Shown here: positions 1,092 through 9,699 of the stretch, piece by piece
Layout of the letters: the number at the start of each line of letters is the position of its first letter
Numbering within the stretch: position 1 is the stretch's first letter
Source of the DNA: a bacterium
Lineage (GTDB): Bacteria; DRYD01
Assembly (NCBI GenBank): GCA_030549815.1
Contig: JAUQQQ010000001.1
Span: 90,873 to 154,872 of the forward strand
Direction of reading: 5' to 3'
DNA: 64,000 bases
Notes under the pieces: generated by a model
What the model saw: only the letters and a program-made list of their open reading frames with translations
What the model was told of the DNA's origin: nothing
Database searches by the model: none
Translations under genes and position numbers: made by a program

Positions 1092-3101
1092 ATGACAATA
1101 AAAAATATTTGTTTAACAGGGCATACATCAAGTGGAAAAACATCGCTCATCGAAACAATAGCATACCTACACAAATTAACAAATTCCTTCGGAACAACAT
1201 CATTGTTAGATACCGACGAAGAAGAAAAGAAAAGAAAAACAACAACTTTCTTAAAAGTATTCCCCATAAAAACAAAAAACTACAAAATTAACCTCATAGA
1301 TACCCCAGGCTTCTCCGATTTCATCGGAGAAATATTAGGAGGCATCCATGCTTCAGAAAATATTGGGATAGTTATAAATTCACAAAACCCCATAGAAGTT
1401 GGAGCCGAAAGATCATGGTTCTTAGCAACAGAAAAAACTAAATCACCAATTTTCTTCATCGTAAATCATTTCGATAAAGAAAACCTTAATTTCGAAAACA
1501 TAATTAACCAACTCAACGAAAACTTTAGTCCAAGAATTATACCCCTGACAATACCAATATACGAAAACAACAATTTCAAAGGTATAGTAGACGTAGTTGC
1601 TAAAAAAGCATACCTCTTTGAAAAAGGAGAACTAAAAGAAACAAACAACCCACATGAAAACCTAACAAACACCTATTACGAAAAAATTACAGAAACAGTA
1701 GCAGAAACAAATGAAGAATTGCTAAATAAATACTTGGAACAAGGAGAACTACCACAAGACGAGATAATCAAAAATCTAAAAGAAGCATACAAACAAAAAT
1801 TACTGTTCCCACTATTCGTCACGAGTGCCAAAATCCCTGAATCAGTTAAAATCCTATTAAAATATCTTGAATCAATAGCAATAAACGCAGATGAATTAGA
1901 TTCGATAAAACCAAATGACAAAGATTTAGTTGCGCTGGTCTTCAAAACAATATCCGATCCATATAAAGGAAGAGTTTCTTTCATCAGAGTCTTTAGTGGA
2001 AAAATAACTAAAGATTCAACAATAACAAATACAACAAAAAATGCTAAAGAAAAAGTAACCGTTTTAGTGGAAATCGCAGGAGACCAACATAACCCAATAA
2101 ACGAATGTCTACCAGGAGATATTTGTGCAACTTATAAATTGGAACAAACATTATCAGGAGATATTTTATCATCTTTAGATAATCCACCGATAAAACCTAT
2201 AGAATATCCTGAACCATTGTTTGAAAAAGGAGTTGAACCTAAAACTAAAGCAGACGAAGAAAAATTATCCTCCGCTATAAACAGAATATTAGAAGAAGAC
2301 CCTACCTTCAAAGCATACAGAGATCACGACGTTAAACAATTTGTTATTTCAACCATAGGAGATGTCCATCTTGACTACATCGTATCAAAATTAAAAAATA
2401 AATACAAAGTTAATATTGAAATAACACCAAGAAAAATACCTTACTTAGAAACAATAAAAGGTAAAGCACAAGCCATAGGAAAGTATGTAAAGCAATCAGG
2501 CGGTAGAGGACAATTCGGAATAGCACACATAGAATTAGAACCATTACCAAGAGGACAAGGTTTTGAATTTGTTGATAGAATTGTTGGTGGAGTTATACCT
2601 AAGAACTTCATACCATCTGTCGAAAAAGGAATAAGAAATGCAATGGAAGAAGGTGTATTATCAGGAAATAGAGTTGTCGATGTAAGAGCAATACTCTTTG
2701 ATGGAAAGTATCACGAAGTAGACTCAAGTGATTTAGCATTCCAAATAGCAGGAGCAATGGCATTCAGAGAAGCAATGTCTAAAGCAAACCCAATAATCCT
2801 TGAGCCTATAATGAGTTTACAAATAATGGTACCCGATAGTATGTTGGGAGATGTCATAGGATTACTTAATACAAAAAGAGCCAGAATAATGGGAATGGAA
2901 ACATCAGAAAGAAAAGGATGGCAGTTAATAAAAGCTGAAGCACCATGGATGGAAATCACTGACCTACCAGTTGAACTTAAATCAGCAACACAAGGTAAAG
3001 CAATATTCTACATGAAATTATCACACTACGAAGAAGCACCATCCAACATATCACAACAAATAATATCCGAAAGTAAGAAAAACCAAGAAGAAAAAGTTTA
3101 G
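1092..3101 (+). CDS. Translational GTPase of the EF-G family (EF-G paralog)
   Basis: Strong SD AAGGAGG is present before the ATG. G1 is GHTSSGKTS, G3 is DTPGFSDF and an NxxD-like G4 (NHFD) is present. The 669-aa length and the domain IV/V region are EF-G-like. Confidence 0.85.
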   Translation: MTIKNICLTGHTSSGKTSLIETIAYLHKLTNSFGTTSLLDTDEEEKKRKTTTFLKVFPIKTKNYKINLIDTPGFSDFIGEILGGIHASENIGIVINSQNPIEVGAERSWFLATEKTKSPIFFIVNHFDKENLNFENIINQLNENFSPRIIPLTIPIYENNNFKGIVDVVAKKAYLFEKGELKETNNPHENLTNTYYEKITETVAETNEELLNKYLEQGELPQDEIIKNLKEAYKQKLLFPLFVTSAKIPESVKILLKYLESIAINADELDSIKPNDKDLVALVFKTISDPYKGRVSFIRVFSGKITKDSTITNTTKNAKEKVTVLVEIAGDQHNPINECLPGDICATYKLEQTLSGDILSSLDNPPIKPIEYPEPLFEKGVEPKTKADEEKLSSAINRILEEDPTFKAYRDHDVKQFVISTIGDVHLDYIVSKLKNKYKVNIEITPRKIPYLETIKGKAQAIGKYVKQSGGRGQFGIAHIELEPLPRGQGFEFVDRIVGGVIPKNFIPSVEKGIRNAMEEGVLSGNRVVDVRAILFDGKYHEVDSSDLAFQIAGAMAFREAMSKANPIILEPIMSLQIMVPDSMLGDVIGLLNTKRARIMGMETSERKGWQLIKAEAPWMEITDLPVELKSATQGKAIFYMKLSHYEEAPSNISQQIISESKKNQEEKV

Positions 3102-3475
3102 TAAAATAAATAAGCAAATAGAATCATTTATTTTACAACAAGTAAATAAAAATAAATTAGATGTAAAGAATCTAAAAGGGGCGCCTGTATTATTACAAAA
3201 ACATTAGAAAAATACTTAATGTTAATGTTATTGATAAACGTGGGAATACTTCGTTTCTATTTCTAAATATCATCTTCTTCTATTACCTTCTTTATCGTCA
3301 AAATCAAACACATATCGTCTACACTATATCTTCCATATTCGGTATTTAATTTTCTTACTTGGCTTTTAAATTTATTTCATTTAACTGATTTAATCTCCAC
3401 TTCTACAGAAGAAGTTCACACTCTACAAAAACTACTTTTTTTACAAAAAACTATTTTTTCTACAAACGGGACCCC

Positions 3476-3517
3476 TTACCCCACAAAACTACTTATTGCC
3501 ATTGGTAATTTATTCAT
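3476..3517 (-). pseudogene. N-terminal remnant (MNKLPMAISSFVG*) of a third AAA-ATPase-like/PD-(D/E)XK paralog, truncated by a GC-rich mini-insertion
   Basis: Reverse translation matches the conserved N-terminus MK(R/K)LP.GISSF of the two downstream paralogs. It stops inside the gggaccccttacccca element. Confidence 0.4.
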
Positions 3518-3556
3518 CCATAGACTTCTTTTTTACTATTCCAACTTACAATCCTT

Positions 3557-5071
3557 TCATAATTTCTCCCACCGATAATTCATTTTTCTTTTTTTCATAT
3601 CAAAATTCATCCCACATATTATTACTTCACCTTCCAACGCATACTTCCCATAATATTCCCTATCCCTTATTTGTTCTATCGCTTTTTCCTCATCCTTCCC
3701 TACCTTTACTTCAAATATGTATATCTTCCTGTTTGGTGTTCTTACCATTATATCAATTCTTCCTAATTTAGTATGCAATTCTGCATTACATTCAAAACCC
3801 GTTGAATATAAATACACATACAAAAACGACTTTATACTCTTTTCATCACTCCCATATAAATCATATGGTATATTCTCCAACAATCTGTTTATCATGTATT
3901 CTATCTCTTCTAAATCAACATTTTCCAATGCTTTCCTTATTGGATTTATCTCACTATCTTCTCCTCTCCACTCTCTTACAAATTCTCTTAACACATTCTC
4001 ATTAAAACTTATCTGTACTTCCTTATTTGGATATCTCAATTTATAAAAATTCCTATCATACTCTTCTTTTACTTTGTCTATTGTTAAGTATCCCGTTTGG
4101 AACATTAATGCTTCTATACTTATTTTCTCTACATCCACTCTATTCAAATCTTCTTCTGACATCATTAACTCCACATTTGGCATCTCATATTTTTTCTCTC
4201 TTATCAGTTTTATCAATACCTCTGGATTACCTGTCTCATACCAATAACTGCTTTTTTTTCTCTCCTGAAAATACAATAACACATCGAATGGATTGTATAT
4301 TTTACTTCCCAACCACCAATACCCATTATACCACTCTCTTATTTCTAACAACTCTTTTTCACTTTCTATTATTTCCCCAAACACTTCCTCCAATTCCCTT
4401 TCTGTATACCCACATATATCTCCATATTCTTTACTCAAGCTTATATCTCTTAATTGATTTAGTCCACTAAAGAGTGATACTTTTGCAAATTTACTTATCC
4501 CTGTTATAAATACAAAACGTAAATACTGGTCTAAACCCTTTATCGTCTGATAAAATCCTTTCAACACTTCTCTTATTTCTTCCGCTATTCCACTCTTCTC
4601 TATATTATCCAATATCGGCTTATCATATTCATCTATTAACAACACTACTTTTTTTCCTGTCTTTTTGTTTATCTTATAAATTAATTCTGACAGCATTGAA
4701 TAATATAGCTCTTCCTCTATTTCTACTTCATAATTCTTACTCCAAAATTTTATTATCGATTTAATATACCTCTTCATTTCTTCTTTGTTTTCTACCTTCC
4801 CTCCATCAAATGAAAACCTTACCACTGGATACTTTTCTCCCCAATTCCACTTCTTTTCCAAATACAATCCTTCAAATAATTCTTTTTTCCCTTCGAATGC
4901 ACATCGCAATGTATCTACAAACAAGCTTTTCCCGAACCTTCGAGGACGTGATAAAAAATAATATTCTCCTCCTTCTACTAATTTTTTTACAAAACTCGTC
5001 TTATCTACATAATAATATCCCCCTGTCCTTATCTTTTCAAAACTACTTATTCCTATTGGCAATCTCTTCAT
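3557..5071 (-). CDS. AAA-ATPase-like domain protein with C-terminal PD-(D/E)XK nuclease-like domain (PF09820-like + PDDEXK)
   Basis: Family hallmarks are the N-terminal MKRLPIGISSFEKIR..YYVDKT motif and FLSRPRRFGKS. The C-terminal GRIDIMV...IFEVK motif is PD-(D/E)XK-like. The preferred start is ATG 5071, with GAAGGGG 8 nt upstream. Confidence 0.8.
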   Translation of the reverse strand: MKRLPIGISSFEKIRTGGYYYVDKTSFVKKLVEGGEYYFLSRPRRFGKSLFVDTLRCAFEGKKELFEGLYLEKKWNWGEKYPVVRFSFDGGKVENKEEMKRYIKSIIKFWSKNYEVEIEEELYYSMLSELIYKINKKTGKKVVLLIDEYDKPILDNIEKSGIAEEIREVLKGFYQTIKGLDQYLRFVFITGISKFAKVSLFSGLNQLRDISLSKEYGDICGYTERELEEVFGEIIESEKELLEIREWYNGYWWLGSKIYNPFDVLLYFQERKKSSYWYETGNPEVLIKLIREKKYEMPNVELMMSEEDLNRVDVEKISIEALMFQTGYLTIDKVKEEYDRNFYKLRYPNKEVQISFNENVLREFVREWRGEDSEINPIRKALENVDLEEIEYMINRLLENIPYDLYGSDEKSIKSFLYVYLYSTGFECNAELHTKLGRIDIMVRTPNRKIYIFEVKVGKDEEKAIEQIRDREYYGKYALEGEVIICGMNFDMKKRKMNYRWEKL

Positions 5072-5088
5072 CCTACACACCCCTTCTC

Positions 5089-5409
5089 TTACCTATATCT
5101 CTCTACTTCCATCTTTTTCACTCTCCTTCCCCTACTATCTATAACTATTCCCACTAAATATATCTCTTCTCTATCCTTATACTTCTCATGATATCTCTTC
5201 TCTTTTATTTGTTCTATTGCTTCCTCCCTATCCACCTTCATCTCTATTATATACACCTTACCCCTATTTATCACCGTTAAATCTATTCTCCCTATACTTG
5301 TCACATCTTCCACTATTACTTCTAATCCACTTGACACCAACAACACATAAAACAATGCACAATAAAAACTCTCATATCTACCCACATCTCTATACCACAT
5401 ATTTGGCAC
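5089..5409 (-). pseudogene. Detached C-terminal PD-(D/E)XK nuclease-like fragment of the second paralog
   Basis: GRIDLTVINRGKVYIIEMKV...EAIEQI parallels the C-terminus of the 3557-5071 gene. It is separated from the N-terminal part (5477-6622) by a frame break. Confidence 0.55.
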
Positions 5410-5476
5410 ACTTCCATATTTAATACATTTTCCAATTCTAACAATTTACCATCAACAAATATCTTCCTTACTTCTC

Positions 5477-6622
5477 TTACCCCCAACTTTTTCCTGACCA
5501 AATACTACTTCCTATATAACTATTTAATGCTACTTTTACCTCTTTGTTCGGATAGCACAATCTATACTCTAACCAATCTTCTTCTATCATCTCTTTTATT
5601 GTCAAATATCCTGTTTGAAATAATAACGCTTCTATCCTTATTTCTTCTATATCAAACATATCTAATACATTATCATCTACTACTACTTCTTCTAAATTCG
5701 GTATATAGTACCCCTTCTCCCTCATAACTTTTACTAAAAATTCTGGGGTGGGGTCCCCTTCCCCTGGATTACCCGTTTTAAACCAATACGACCTATATAC
5801 TCTATTTTCCATATACAACAACACATCAAATGGATTATATATCCTTGAACCTAACCAATAATACCCATTGTACCACTCCCTTATTTTCTCTAATTCTTCC
5901 TTCCCTTCTATTAACTCTCCAAATACCTTTAATAATTCTTCCTCTGTATACCCACATATATCTCCATATTCTTTACTCAAGCTTATATCTCTTAATTGAT
6001 TTAGTCCACTAAAGAGTGATACTTTTGCAAATTTACTTATCCCTGTTATAAATACAAAACGTAAATACTGGTCTAAACCCTTTATCGTCTGATAAAATCC
6101 TTTCAACACTTCTCTTATTTCTTCCGCTATTCCACTCTTCTCTATATTATCCAATATCGGCTTATCATATTCATCTATTAACAACACTACTTTTTTTCCT
6201 GTCTTTTTGTTTATCTTATAAATTAATTCTGACAGCATTGAATAATATAGCTCTTCCTCTATTTCTACTTCATAATTCTTACTCCAAAATTTTATTATCG
6301 ATTTAATATACCTCTTCATTTCTTCTTTGTTTTCTACCTTCCCTCCATCAAATGAAAACCTTACCACTGGATACTTTTCTCCCCAATTCCACTTCTTTTC
6401 CAAATACAATCCTTCAAATAATTCTTTTTTCCCTTCGAATGCACATCGCAATGTATCTACAAACAAGCTTTTCCCGAACCTTCGAGGACGTGATAAAAAG
6501 TAATACTTACCTTCTTCCTCCAACTTTTTTACAAAATGTGTCTTTGGGGTAGGGGTCCCCCAATTTTCTACATAATAATATCCTCCTGTTCTTATCTCCA
6601 TAGAGGGACCCCTACCCCACAA
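5477..6622 (-). pseudogene. Disrupted paralog of the AAA-ATPase-like/PD-(D/E)XK gene (N-terminal ATPase-like part), carrying GC-rich mini-insertions
   Basis: Near-identical to the 3557-5071 protein over its FLSRPRRFGKS...YNGY region. The ancestral ATG (~6673) reads into a stop after an inserted GGGGTAGGGGTCCC element. Further in-frame insertions encode NWGTPTP and GEGDPTP. Confidence 0.6.
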
Positions 6623-6828
6623 AACTACTTATCCCTACAAACGGGACCCCTACCCCATGGCAATTTCTTCATTCCACACACCTCGTTTTCTATTACTAAT
6701 ATATTAAAACTACTACCAAATATTAGTTCCTTATTTTAGATCCCTTTTTATTATTTCTTCAGCCAACAGCGATTACCTATATTTTATTTGAAAGTGCAAC
6801 AGTTTACTACTGATTCCAAAATAAAAAA

Positions 6829-6853
6829 TAAAGGGAGCTTTGAGAGCTCCCTT
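6829..6853 (-). terminator. Rho-independent terminator hairpin downstream of the 6883-9699 gene
   Basis: aaagggagctttgagagctcccttt is a perfect 8-10-bp GC-containing stem. It is followed on the minus strand by a T-run (plus strand aaaataaaaaataa). Confidence 0.55.
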
Positions 6854-6882
6854 TGAAAGCAACAATTAATTACCTTCTTAAT

Positions 6883-9699
6883 TTATCTTCTTAAAGTATC
6901 ATATATCCTATATTCATAGCCTCTATACCTTATAGATGCGCTTTGGAGGAAACTAATGTTGAAAAGTGAAGGATCATAGAAGAAATCTACTTTACTCGTG
7001 CCCTTTATCCCAACATTACCCTTAGTTACAACCATTCCACTAAACCATAATCGATTGTTATTACCCGTTATTGCTTTCAGATTCCCACCAACCATTATTA
7101 AACCATTTAATTTAACATCGGTCCCTAATATTTGCTCGTTAGCCTTCCCCCTCTTTTTCTTTTCTTTTTCCATTTGCTGCTGCCCCTGTTGCTGATCCTG
7201 CTGCGTAGTAGATTGATCACTATTTTCTGTAACAAGCCCAGATATAAAATTTAAAGCAGAAGCAAAATCAGAATCAGTAATACTACTGTTAATACTACTA
7301 TATGAACTTGAAACATCAACAGCTATAGTACCTTCATCCGTCGAAGCATTTCCAGTATTAGACAAATTTCCTACATGCAAGTTGACAGAAGGAATATTAA
7401 TATTAACATACAGAATTTTTACTTTACTTTCGCTATCATCATTAACTTCTTCCACTTCCAATTTTATTGTATTAACACTATCATAAAATAAAAGAATAAA
7501 GTCATTAAGCCCATCTCCATCCTGAATATCTATTTTTGAAAAAGTCATACTACCACTATTATTTTTAAGATATTCATAAACAGTGTTAAAAACAGTGTTA
7601 AATTCATTTGTGTTTGACCCACTACCTCCACTTGTTCCACCACCACTTGTTCCTCCACTTGTTCCACCACCACTTGTTCCTCCACTTGTTCCACCGCCAC
7701 CTGCAAAACCTTCACTAAGTGGGTTAATGTATAGGTTATTATCGGCTAAGATAGCGACGTTTTGGTAGCCCTGATAAACTTGGCTAAACCTTGCAATTAT
7801 ATCCCCCTGTTTAACCTGCCCACCTACAGCACTATAATCTTTTGTTTTTAAAGTTCCACTTTTACTATCATAATTATATGATTGCCAATAATTAGTAACA
7901 TTATTATCATAATAAACTGGGGCAATATAGTTAGTTACGTTTAAAGAATCGTTAGAAGAGTCCTTAGTAGCTACTAAAGCTCCTCCACCTTCCTCATCAG
8001 TCTTAACTATTCCATCAATAACAATCGCTCCTTTGTCATACCACAAAACCGAACCATTATCTATCTTAACCCCTACATCAATCTTTCCAAACCTATAATC
8101 ATCTACACTACCATCACTTCTATATTGAGCTTTCCAGGAAGTAATATGGATAAACTTTCCCTGATCATTTTTTTGACCATCTATTTGATCACCTATTTTG
8201 GTATCCTTTTTAACAACGAGGTTCCATTTTTCGGCATATATTTCATTTCCCACAATGCTTGTATTGTATATTTGGACTCCACCTGGTGTTATCTTTGCTT
8301 TGCTTGTGTCTATAGTTCCATCACTTTTAACAACTTGCTTTAGATAGTTATCAATTTGAGTATAACTAACATCTGGTGGGAAATATACAACAGTATTTTC
8401 ATTTACAAAAACATAATATCCTGCATTTAACTGTGCATATGATCCAGGAGTAAATTTAGAGTTAATTTCGTTAATCAATGCTTTTCGCGAGCTATCAAAA
8501 CCGGATTCTATTGTTTTATTTACAAACTCTGCACCAATAAAGTCTTTTATTTGGTTGTATTTATTTTGATCATATTTAATAGCATTAGGATCTGTTCCAT
8601 CTATCATCGTATAAATTGTCTTACCATATTTGAAACTATTACCACTATTAGTTTTAGCAATCACTTCTCCTCTAAGCCCGCCATATTCAGCTTGAAAATT
8701 TCCATTACTATCTTGCTTAACAGTGTAAAATTTTGTAGTTTTGTGATCAGCATTAAGTTTTATATCAAACGTATTAGAATAGAATCTATTATTAACTCTA
8801 TTACTATCATAGGTTCCGACTTCTAAATTAGAATCGATAATAGTGGATCCTTCAGAAACCAGGGATCCACCTAGGGAAAACCCTGCATTAGCAAAAGATT
8901 GATTAATATAGGTTATAACATATCTTTGTGAAGCTGGAACTTTTGAGTATCCAAGAGCCATTATCATCAATGTATTCTGCCCAACTTTTCTACTACCATT
9001 AACATTAATTTCTTGATCTGCAAATGAGCGGTTGTATGAAGAGTACAAAGGCAATCTTCCATTCGTAGCAGACAAAGATAGTTGATTATTATCAAAATCT
9101 ACAAATATTGTGTTAGCTTCATCACCATAATAGGCGTTATTAGAATTGGTTGAATTACCAAAAAATATAACGCTTCCACGCTCTGTTATAGGTAAATTAG
9201 GTTTCCAAAAAACAACAACAGCTCCATTTTTACCTGCAAGATTATTAATTGAAATATCATTAGGTATTCCGGTTCCTCCTTGAACATTGCCATTAGATTG
9301 CCTAATTATCCATCCACTTTGAGTTGTATCTGCTAAATTTATTATAGCAATATTATAAGCCAGGGTGACATTACCAAAGTTGCTAAAGATTTTTCCTATT
9401 TTAGTTGAAGGATTATTTAAAGAGGGAAAAGTTATGGTATTTATGCTACTTGTGCCGCTTCCCGAACCTGTTATAGATTGGCTTGGTGTATTAAGCATAA
9501 AAGATTCAGGAGAGTGACTTATAAGAAAAGTAAGGATTTGAATAGCATCTTCCGCATTATTCATTGCTTCCTGACGAGCAAAGTAATCTTTATTAGTTTT
9601 AAAATTATTTTGTGTTAATCCAAATAGAGCGACTGACATCATTATGAGAACCACTATAAAGAATAATGTGCTTAGTAATAGGACACCTTTTTTATTCAT
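6883..9699 (-). CDS. Large (938 aa) membrane-anchored surface protein with PilX_N-like N-terminus and Gly/Thr/Ser repeat linker
   Basis: N-terminal TM helix followed by TQNNF...ARQEAMNNAEDAI, which resembles the PilX_N pattern of A..AE.G. after a TM segment. An internal GGTSGG tandem repeat is present and the body is Asn/Ser/Thr-rich. Confidence 0.45.
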   Translation of the reverse strand: MNKKGVLLLSTLFFIVVLIMMSVALFGLTQNNFKTNKDYFARQEAMNNAEDAIQILTFLISHSPESFMLNTPSQSITGSGSGTSSINTITFPSLNNPSTKIGKIFSNFGNVTLAYNIAIINLADTTQSGWIIRQSNGNVQGGTGIPNDISINNLAGKNGAVVVFWKPNLPITERGSVIFFGNSTNSNNAYYGDEANTIFVDFDNNQLSLSATNGRLPLYSSYNRSFADQEINVNGSRKVGQNTLMIMALGYSKVPASQRYVITYINQSFANAGFSLGGSLVSEGSTIIDSNLEVGTYDSNRVNNRFYSNTFDIKLNADHKTTKFYTVKQDSNGNFQAEYGGLRGEVIAKTNSGNSFKYGKTIYTMIDGTDPNAIKYDQNKYNQIKDFIGAEFVNKTIESGFDSSRKALINEINSKFTPGSYAQLNAGYYVFVNENTVVYFPPDVSYTQIDNYLKQVVKSDGTIDTSKAKITPGGVQIYNTSIVGNEIYAEKWNLVVKKDTKIGDQIDGQKNDQGKFIHITSWKAQYRSDGSVDDYRFGKIDVGVKIDNGSVLWYDKGAIVIDGIVKTDEEGGGALVATKDSSNDSLNVTNYIAPVYYDNNVTNYWQSYNYDSKSGTLKTKDYSAVGGQVKQGDIIARFSQVYQGYQNVAILADNNLYINPLSEGFAGGGGTSGGTSGGGTSGGTSGGGTSGGSGSNTNEFNTVFNTVYEYLKNNSGSMTFSKIDIQDGDGLNDFILLFYDSVNTIKLEVEEVNDDSESKVKILYVNINIPSVNLHVGNLSNTGNASTDEGTIAVDVSSSYSSINSSITDSDFASALNFISGLVTENSDQSTTQQDQQQGQQQMEKEKKKRGKANEQILGTDVKLNGLIMVGGNLKAITGNNNRLWFSGMVVTKGNVGIKGTSKVDFFYDPSLFNISFLQSASIRYRGYEYRIYDTLRR

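Follow-up and report, generated by a model that had tools for sequence, protein, structure and literature searches.

A quasi-palindromic insertion of about 20 bp recurs in inactivated copies of one DUF1703 gene family

We analyzed a 64-kb stretch of a metagenome-assembled bacterial contig (JAUQQQ010000001.1), called the window below, in which five copies of a short G/C-rich unit lie within positions 3464-6657, all of them inside a minus-strand tandem array of DUF1703 paralogs. The motif is a genuine, non-random insertion, and the sampled DNA supports its confinement to this gene family. Every carrier found is a pseudogene or a gene remnant, and intact paralogs have no insertions. The unit encodes nothing and, in the DNA sampled, is not a dispersed transposon. 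We tentatively explain it as a mini-insertion, quasi-palindromic and restricted to one family, that multiplies by local copying of units already present and reaches other paralogs through gene conversion, an explanation that we place somewhat short of probable.

An initial annotation of the window had listed five G/C-rich copies in a region of about 30% GC. Both observations hold: the base composition is about 29-30% G+C, and the copies were recovered within a few bases of the positions given. The 14-mer GGGGTAGGGGTCCC at two or fewer mismatches has 5 matches in the window, where 0.03 would be expected by chance, and GGGGTCCC has 5 against 0.21 expected; the five copies read TGGGGT(A)GGGGTCCC. 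Searching with a 15-mer at up to three mismatches returned the same five sites only, and no pair of G4 (or C4) tracts at most 3 nt apart occurs elsewhere in the 64 kb. With the same tolerance of three mismatches, the non-family DNA of the window and of related contigs (L001, L002, L141, L142, L144, L146, L147, L148 and L149), about 147 kb in sum, contained no copy, whereas the family pseudogene DNA, about 4-5 kb in total, holds five insertion sites in three lineages. The window DNA that lies outside both the array and the open reading frames (ORFs) of at least 150 aa, up to 5.3 kb, is motif-free as well. Because these up to 5.3 kb and the 147 kb are both without a copy, tolerance of insertions in junk DNA is by itself a poor account of the pattern. 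The restriction to one gene family suspected in the initial annotation is thus borne out in the sampled DNA, and an abundance of the motif without family preference, named there as the outcome that would speak against the proposal, was not seen.

A scan of a genome collection with the 15-mer gave at least 119 single chance matches, nearly all in DNA of higher G+C content, and there was no multi-copy genome among the matches listed. Viral contigs gave 19 matches, all single and by chance. No Rfam family matched at the motif, and a literature search on the motif string yielded nothing relevant.

The host array consists of three tandem copies of one gene family on the minus strand, flanked by an EF-G gene (1092-3101) on one side and a large pilin-like ORF (6883-9699) on the other. 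The intact paralog (3557-5071, minus strand) is motif-free and has the AAA-ATPase_like plus PDDEXK_9 architecture of DUF1703, with Pfam scores of 3.4e-73 for PF09820 and 3.3e-15 for PF08011; it is 100% identical to the database protein P0001. The disrupted paralog (5089-6672, minus strand) is a mosaic pseudogene split into two ORFs with one domain each (PF09820 and PF08011). The third is an 80-bp 5' remnant (3437-3517, minus strand) covering the MNKLPMAISSF ... FVKK region, recognized by tblastn and by alignment with a shuffle control. Compared with L001, an ENA metagenome sequence that holds an uninterrupted ortholog followed by a beta-propeller-repeat gene, the disrupted paralog also bears lesions of +2, -7 and -3 bp, so it is a pseudogene whatever the motif does. 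The +2-bp frameshift (5476-5484, minus strand) changes GTTGGATAAG of L001 to GTTGGGGGTAAG; the G5-T run created in this way is similar to the first bases of the motif. Four intact family genes are without the motif, namely the window's intact paralog, L001, L002 and L141, the last on a contig that is motif-free throughout. The inserts are also absent from the other 120 database proteins of the family, and there is no insert-bearing full-length protein among the 121.

The insertions were defined by aligning the broken copy with the intact paralog and with the uninterrupted ortholog in L001, and their sequences were re-verified. Insertion A (6639-6657, minus strand) has 19 bp, TGGGGTAGGGGTCCCGTTT, which is TGGGGTAGGGGTCCC with the tail GTTT; it follows codon 5 (MKKLP) and shifts the frame. 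Insertion B (6601-6619, minus strand), likewise of 19 bp, TGGGGTAGGGGTCCCTCTA, is TGGGGTAGGGGTCCC with the tail TCTA and follows ISSF. In the native frame it reads TTT GTG GGG TAG and thus brings in a stop. Insertion C (6546-6566) lies on the plus strand, opposite to A and B, and its 21 bp, in gene sense AAATTGGGGGACCCCTACCCC, encode NWGTPTP after YYYV(D/E) and before KT. The initial annotation had assigned NWGTPTP to two insertions; this is correct for C and does not apply to B, with its 19 bp and its stop codon. Insertion D (5744-5764, plus strand; TGGGGTGGGGTCCCCTTCCCC, in gene sense GGGGAAGGGGACCCCACCCCA) is a 21-bp insertion encoding GEGDPTP between TGNP and EF of a conserved block, and here the alignment agrees with the annotation.

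The fifth copy in the window (3464-3483, minus strand) is a 20-bp unit in the third-paralog remnant, TGGGGTAAGGGGTCCC followed by GTTT. Its left junction is that of B and its tail is that of A, with GTCCCGTTTGTAG common to it and A. The motif (TGGGGTAAGGGGTCCCGTTT) follows ISSF, as had been noted. The fragment does not end there, as had been supposed: homology resumes in the YVDKTSFVKK region (3 of 500 shuffles score as well), and the motif replaces about 28-30 bp of the gene. A reading of the downstream sequence as a tandem array was rejected in favor of this homology.

The same insertions are present in related genomes. The best named relative of the window's EF-G protein belongs to Candidatus Calescibacterium sp. 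(83% identity), which places the source, as judged from this protein, among the relatives of that group. Candidatus Calescibacterium is an uncultured hot-spring lineage. A close relative is represented by L142 and L143, two independent Logan assemblies of different runs, whose EF-G is 95% identical to that of the window in protein and 89% in DNA. Downstream of this gene they have an 840-bp non-coding stretch with two decayed 5' remnants of a family gene. In remnant 1 of L142, A' reads TGGAGTGGGAGTCATGTTT and B' reads TGGGGTAGGGGCTCC, and site C is occupied by a segment of unchanged length that has decayed fully to A+T; remnant 2 contains C' (GTTGATCTCCTATAAC), likewise of unchanged length. Four of the five differences between A' and the motif are A/T in place of G/C, and so are all mismatches between C' and C. 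L144, L146 and L147 have neither an array downstream of EF-G nor the motif.

A metagenome scan with the site-B junction pattern gave four matches, among them L148 and L149, two JGI contigs (30% G+C) that represent the same sequence from two datasets; L150 and L151 proved to be chance matches without family homology. In L148/L149 a DUF1703 pseudogene is followed by a beta-propeller-repeat gene (SBBP-type Pfam matches), the same neighbor as in L001. The pseudogene in L149 carries B, C and D at the sites found in the window, lacks A, and has an extra site, E. Its B has 21 bp (TGGGGTAGGGGTCCCCTTTTG), with the TAG flanked by GGG codons; its C is identical to that of the window at 21 of 21 positions; and its D (GGGGAGGGGGCCCCTACCCCA) differs by three substitutions. 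Insertion E (2652-2671 of L149, equal to 11823-11842 of L148) has 20 bp, AGGGGTTGGGGACCCTGGTC, lies between KVSLF and SGLNQL and shifts the frame. Its variant core AGGGGTTGGGGACCC (TA to TT, T to A) is close to the window's D in gene sense, AGGGGAAGGGGACCC. The pseudogene has lesions of its own as well (+14, -1 and -35 bp). The first of these sizes corresponds to a non-motif, complex indel, ATTAGGTGTTCCGC, at 2237-2250 of L149 (11389-11402 of L148) in the conserved RPRRFGKS block, for which 8-9-mers revealed no nearby template.

The insertions are therefore old and common to related lineages, and the presence/absence differences that the initial annotation had proposed to look for do exist: A is absent from L149, D is absent from L001, E is found in L149, and A', B' and C' are decayed in L142. 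The distribution suggests that B, C and D came first, that A was gained by an ancestor common to L142 and the window genome, and that E arose in the L149 lineage. This recurrence also bears on whether the copies are an assembly or sequencing artefact. The window does come from a metagenome-assembled contig, and its neighboring paralogs share a 557-bp exact repeat. An artefact can nevertheless be set aside, since the same insertions occur at the same sites in five independent datasets (L148 and L149 from JGI, L142 and L143 from Logan, and the NCBI contig).

The insertions are lesions: B gives a stop codon, and A and E shift the frame. The net lengths are 19 bp for A, 21 bp ancestrally and 19 bp in the window for B, 21 bp for C, 21 bp for D and 20 bp for E. 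Lengths divisible by three at three of five sites are not significant (P(>=3) about 0.2). These lengths, the TAG in B and the pseudogene state of all carriers do not bear out the in-frame preference that had been proposed. For the five insertion sites, the 8-residue conservation percentiles within the family are 89, 57, 82, 98 and 89. The sites thus lie in conserved family blocks, and the insertions are therefore expected to damage the protein. It is very improbable that the units are tolerated in frame, or bypassed by hopping over GGG-TAG-GGG, in genes that still function, in the manner of Rickettsia palindromic or mitochondrial 'byp' elements. Such tolerance would suit C and D, which at 21 bp contain no stop codon and use the same motif frame, x-x-G-(T/D)-P-T-P, and it would suit the 21-bp B of L149 with its TAG between GGG codons. 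On the other hand, the inserts sit in the most conserved protein blocks, full-length proteins bearing them are missing from the 121 family members, and each carrier has further frameshifts peculiar to its lineage: in the window, +2 and -7 besides the 19-bp A; in L149, +14, -1 and -35 besides the 20-bp E.

Insertion B has a further effect on annotation. It supplies a Shine-Dalgarno-like AGGGGT and, together with its tail, an ATG 6 nt downstream (6585-6625, minus strand); the AGGGGT resembles the Shine-Dalgarno sequence upstream of the intact paralog. The database ORF P0004 (374 aa, MEIRTGG...) starts at this ATG. P0004 is thus a truncated product of a pseudogene, and its start codon was made by the insertion.

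All copies start exactly with (T/A)GGGGT, and a second G4 tract follows after 0-2 further bases. The unit can be described as a G-arm (TGGGGT-A(0-2)-GGGG), a partial complementary C-arm and a variable tail of 3-5 nt. A, B, C and E have TCCC(C) as their complementary arm; in D it is extended to CCCCTACCCC, which makes D a near-complete palindrome. Unit A (TGGGGTAGGGGTCCCGTTTG), the fragment unit and unit B of L149 have the tail as well as the core in common, TGGGGTAGGGGTCCC(C/G)TTT(T)G. Since the tail was carried along in these three, the copies appear to have been made from an existing copy, without an external master. In L149 the tail of B also repeats 5 nt to the left of B. Insertions C and B make up a 15-20-bp inverted repeat, and the native flanks GTTTT (before B) and AAAAC (after C) are complementary, so that B and C form a predicted stem of 15-20 bp. 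The spacer between them is native coding sequence, homologous to uninterrupted genes.

These features agree with the earlier view that the element is not an ordinary insertion sequence or miniature inverted-repeat transposable element. Terminal inverted repeats around an internal sequence, in an element of about 50-500 bp, were not found, as the units have 19-21 bp and the sole inverted pair, B and C, flanks native coding sequence. A constant-length target-site duplication was not found at the inspected junctions either: a 5-bp duplication (TTTTG) is possible at B of L149 only, and A, C, D and E have none. In the DNA sampled the unit is not dispersed, and the annotated parts of the sampled DNA (the window to about 39 kb, 1-11 kb of L148 and the first gene downstream of the L149 pseudogene) contain no transposase, recombinase or reverse transcriptase. 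Inspection of the flanks showed no evident target word common to the five junctions. Sites B, C and E share the left flank GTTTT(R), and there are (G)ATAAG words close by; neither is established as a target. Readings as a CRISPR repeat, an integron attC site or a shufflon, prompted by the GTTTGTAG tail and the inverted copies, were rejected; there were no arrays, no R-box consensus and no nearby recombinase.

Folding predictions for single units are weak. For B with 10 nt on either side the predicted energy is -5.6 kcal/mol at 37 C but only -0.3 at 70 C, and D folds no better than shuffled sequence (z -0.5). Each copy has two G4 tracts, no G-quadruplex is predicted, and quadruplex-aware folding of the A-B and A-B-C regions gives hairpins only. 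These results go against the G-tract structure that the initial annotation had offered as one possible role, and on the folding models a G-quadruplex-type recombination initiator in canonical form is unlikely.

A wider version of this idea is that the G-tract or hairpin blocks are functional recombination signals, which would stall replication or form structures that set off conversion, so that the intact paralog would draw on the dead copies as silent donor cassettes. There are precedents for G-rich motifs in gene families that recombine (PMC4412290, PMC5093961). The setting would fit, with a tandem array of one intact gene and dead copies in a genome of about 29-30% G+C, a fresh conversion tract of 557 bp, and motif cores conserved in two lineages. 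We nevertheless consider it quite unlikely. In addition to the folding results, the intact gene that should act as recipient is motif-free together with its flanks, the conversion tract stops 46 bp short of C and over 175 bp short of D, decay has set in among the L142 copies, and A, B and E wreck the reading frame inside the supposed donor.

The evidence for gene conversion comes from the structure of the broken copy, which is a mosaic of three parts: a 5' module with A, B and C, a middle identical to the intact neighbor, and a 3' part orthologous to L001 with D and the small lesions. The 5' module is 93% identical to L149 over the B-C stretch and about 75-84% identical in the neighboring stretches. 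In the middle, between sites C and D, a 557-bp tract (5943-6499, minus strand) is 100% identical to 4401-4957 of the intact paralog. Its flanks are 58-91% identical between the paralogs, and the tract itself is only 51-79% identical to L001. This pattern indicates a probable, very recent gene conversion between the tandem neighbors. Frequent recombination among DUF1703 paralogs has been described in another bacterium (PMC6387759). Mosaicism is also seen among intact family members of related genomes, as P0003 equals P0002 over the first ~80 residues and is P0001-like thereafter.

Site D points in the same direction. The 3' part of the broken copy is 92-99% identical to L001, and this range also holds around D, which L001 lacks; in the same region the identity to the D-bearing L149 is only 64-75%. 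Over the 60 nt upstream of D the window differs from L001 at 5 positions, 4 of them in the last 12 nt. Because these differences cluster beside D, short-patch conversion is the likely source, and the comparison indicates that D was probably carried in by such a tract. Three of the four D-adjacent differences match the state of L149 and of the intact paralog (GGT AAT CCA), an agreement that concerns one site only. The link with gene conversion that had been suggested for the motif is therefore supported. This does not extend to the idea that one codon position was targeted independently: given the mosaic structure and the pattern at D, common descent plus conversion between paralogs explains the same-site copies better than retargeting does. 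The location of the sites in conserved blocks also fits spread by homologous exchange.

The same observations could be read as traces of homing. In that case the unit would be a site-specific nano-element mobilized in trans: an enzyme from elsewhere, possibly the DUF1703 nuclease, would cut conserved family sequence, and repair from a filled copy would bring the 16-21-bp unit into empty paralogs. All five sites are in one family and favor conserved blocks, two genes with only 64-75% identity around D both contain it and an ortholog of 92-99% identity lacks it, differences cluster beside D as in co-conversion, and the cores stay identical across lineages. We regard homing as unlikely all the same. 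There is no candidate enzyme near any locus in the annotated parts, the five junctions have no evident target sequence in common, and the copies in L142 decay. In addition, intact paralogs beside filled copies have stayed empty, including the neighbor that shares the 557-bp converted tract.

Local copying followed by gene conversion would begin with a rare first insertion. Further copies would then be made on the spot, with a copy already in that gene serving as template during fold-back or template-switch repair. Such templating would give direct as well as inverted copies and would carry the donor's tail along, and intrastrand template switching at a quasi-palindrome would produce the inverted configuration of B and C. 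Short-patch gene conversion would then carry each insertion to the matching position in other paralogs. We infer the template-switch origin, as we would any bias in the conversion.

Several points weigh against this explanation. It takes the first copy as given, and a templated origin of D and E is conjectural. Ancestral B, C and D each have exactly 21 bp. The family restriction rests on the sampled DNA, and a low-copy dispersed element may exist elsewhere in the source genome. Finally, in the B core and the C unit the window agrees with L149 at 36 of 36 positions, compared with 112 of 129 (87%) for the non-insert DNA of the same module; the chance of this at that divergence is about 0.006, for a core that was chosen after the data were seen. 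Unlike a purely neutral scar, such identity suggests maintenance by homogenization, re-copying or selection. Since the B and C cores are identical in these two lineages while the L142 copies decay towards A+T, there appears to be some maintenance in the two, and homing and a recombination signal therefore stay alive as alternatives.

A more radical version, which seems distinctly doubtful, is that the unit is a selfish element homing to paralogs. It would be a G/C core of about 16 nt without an enzyme of its own, with a recombining nuclease family as its sole refuge. Filled paralogs would pass it to empty ones by biased (possibly GC-biased) short-patch conversion, or by cleavage of the empty site by the family's own PD-(D/E)XK nuclease, and it would inactivate the copies it enters. 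If so, continual re-copying would be what keeps the B and C cores perfectly conserved, in spite of the A+T-biased decay seen elsewhere.

For the origin of the first copy there is a faint lead in the coding sense of the motif. The family consensus at site D is ETGTPTFL, according to a protein search with the region around D, in which the matches were all short fragments without a close relative among them. Read in the sense of the gene, the motif codes for GTPT(P), and D lies inside the ETG(T/N)P(T/E)F block; given this consensus, GGG ACC CCT ACC (GTPT) resembles the native motif.

If the family restriction holds for the whole genome, the unit, at about 20 bp, would rank with the smallest repeated insertions known. 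Its confinement to one multigene family would be unusual too, with the spread of a repeat tied to conversion between paralogs and not to a transposase. The case is also relevant to the inactivation and exchange of DUF1703 nuclease paralogs in a thermophilic phylum that is uncultured. Should the motif turn out to be dispersed in the full genome, the finding would shrink to an ordinary small repeat tolerated in dead genes.

The surroundings of the array are unremarkable in gene content, as the window from 6.9 to 39 kb has ordinary housekeeping genes, including those for BamA, HisRS, ATP synthase gamma, peptide deformylase and RuvC. The gap that separates the pilin-like ORF from the broken paralog contains a perfect G/C-rich hairpin with a short T-run (6830-6860; AAAGGGAGCTTTGAGAGCTCCCTTT), which looks like an intrinsic terminator and gave sub-threshold Rfam matches only. 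The ORF itself (6883-9699) encodes 938 aa with a prepilin-like N-terminus and has no Pfam or NCBIfam match; at 7545-7720 it contains a GGGTSGGTSGGGTSGG repeat, coded by a short tandem DNA repeat. In L001 the beta-propeller gene is closely followed by a G9-AATTTT-C6 hairpin with a T-run (3199-3225), probably a terminator and without relation to the motif.

Among known systems, the mobile GC clusters of yeast mitochondria (e.g., GC42) and related mitochondrial hairpin elements resemble the unit as short, non-coding, G/C-rich palindromic blocks in an A+T-rich genome that show presence/absence polymorphism, and GC clusters have been linked to recombination and gene conversion (PMC4478555). They are, however, complete hairpins of about 30-60 bp, mostly intergenic, with many dispersed copies and an AG target duplication, whereas the present unit has 19-21 bp and a truncated second arm and is found on a bacterial chromosome in one gene family. 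Repetitive extragenic palindromic (REP) sequences and REPINs, mobilized by RAYT, are likewise short, G/C-rich, imperfect palindromes, and the inverted pair of B and C resembles a REPIN doublet (PMC3116915). REPINs differ in being extragenic, in numbering hundreds per genome, in having a spacer that is part of the element, and in the presence of a RAYT gene. Here the B-C spacer is native coding sequence, all copies are inside DUF1703 gene copies, the single-unit hairpin is weak, and no RAYT gene was seen in the annotated parts of the sampled DNA.

Rickettsia palindromic elements are similar in that they are repeats inside protein-coding genes, some of them in frame (PMC10969869), but they measure about 100-150 bp and occupy many unrelated genes that stay functional, whereas here one family is affected and all carriers are pseudogenes. 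G-rich recombination initiators, such as the pilE G-quadruplex of Neisseria, the var G-quadruplex of Plasmodium and the vls motifs of Borrelia, provide a parallel, as there too G-tract motifs are rare and belong to a multigene family that recombines, in some cases in an A+T-rich genome, with silent or pseudogene copies nearby (PMC4412290, PMC5093961). These have four G-tracts, or motifs that flank cassettes in both donor and recipient, whereas the present copies have two tracts and occur in dead copies only. Homing elements (introns, inteins and homing endonuclease genes) encode or are associated with an endonuclease, which a 19-21-bp unit cannot encode and which is not found nearby in the annotated parts.

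Comparable in size are the small dispersed repeats of 21-27 nt in heterocyst-forming cyanobacteria, reportedly the subject of a 2008 study by Elhai et al. in Genome Research. Such repeats are in the same class of about 20 nt, encode no enzyme and can form nested or clustered insertions; they differ in being dispersed through the genome, mostly in intergenic regions or RNA genes, and not tied to one family. The present unit is shorter than nearly all of its analogues, lacks a complete hairpin and, in the DNA sampled, is confined to dead copies of a single gene family.

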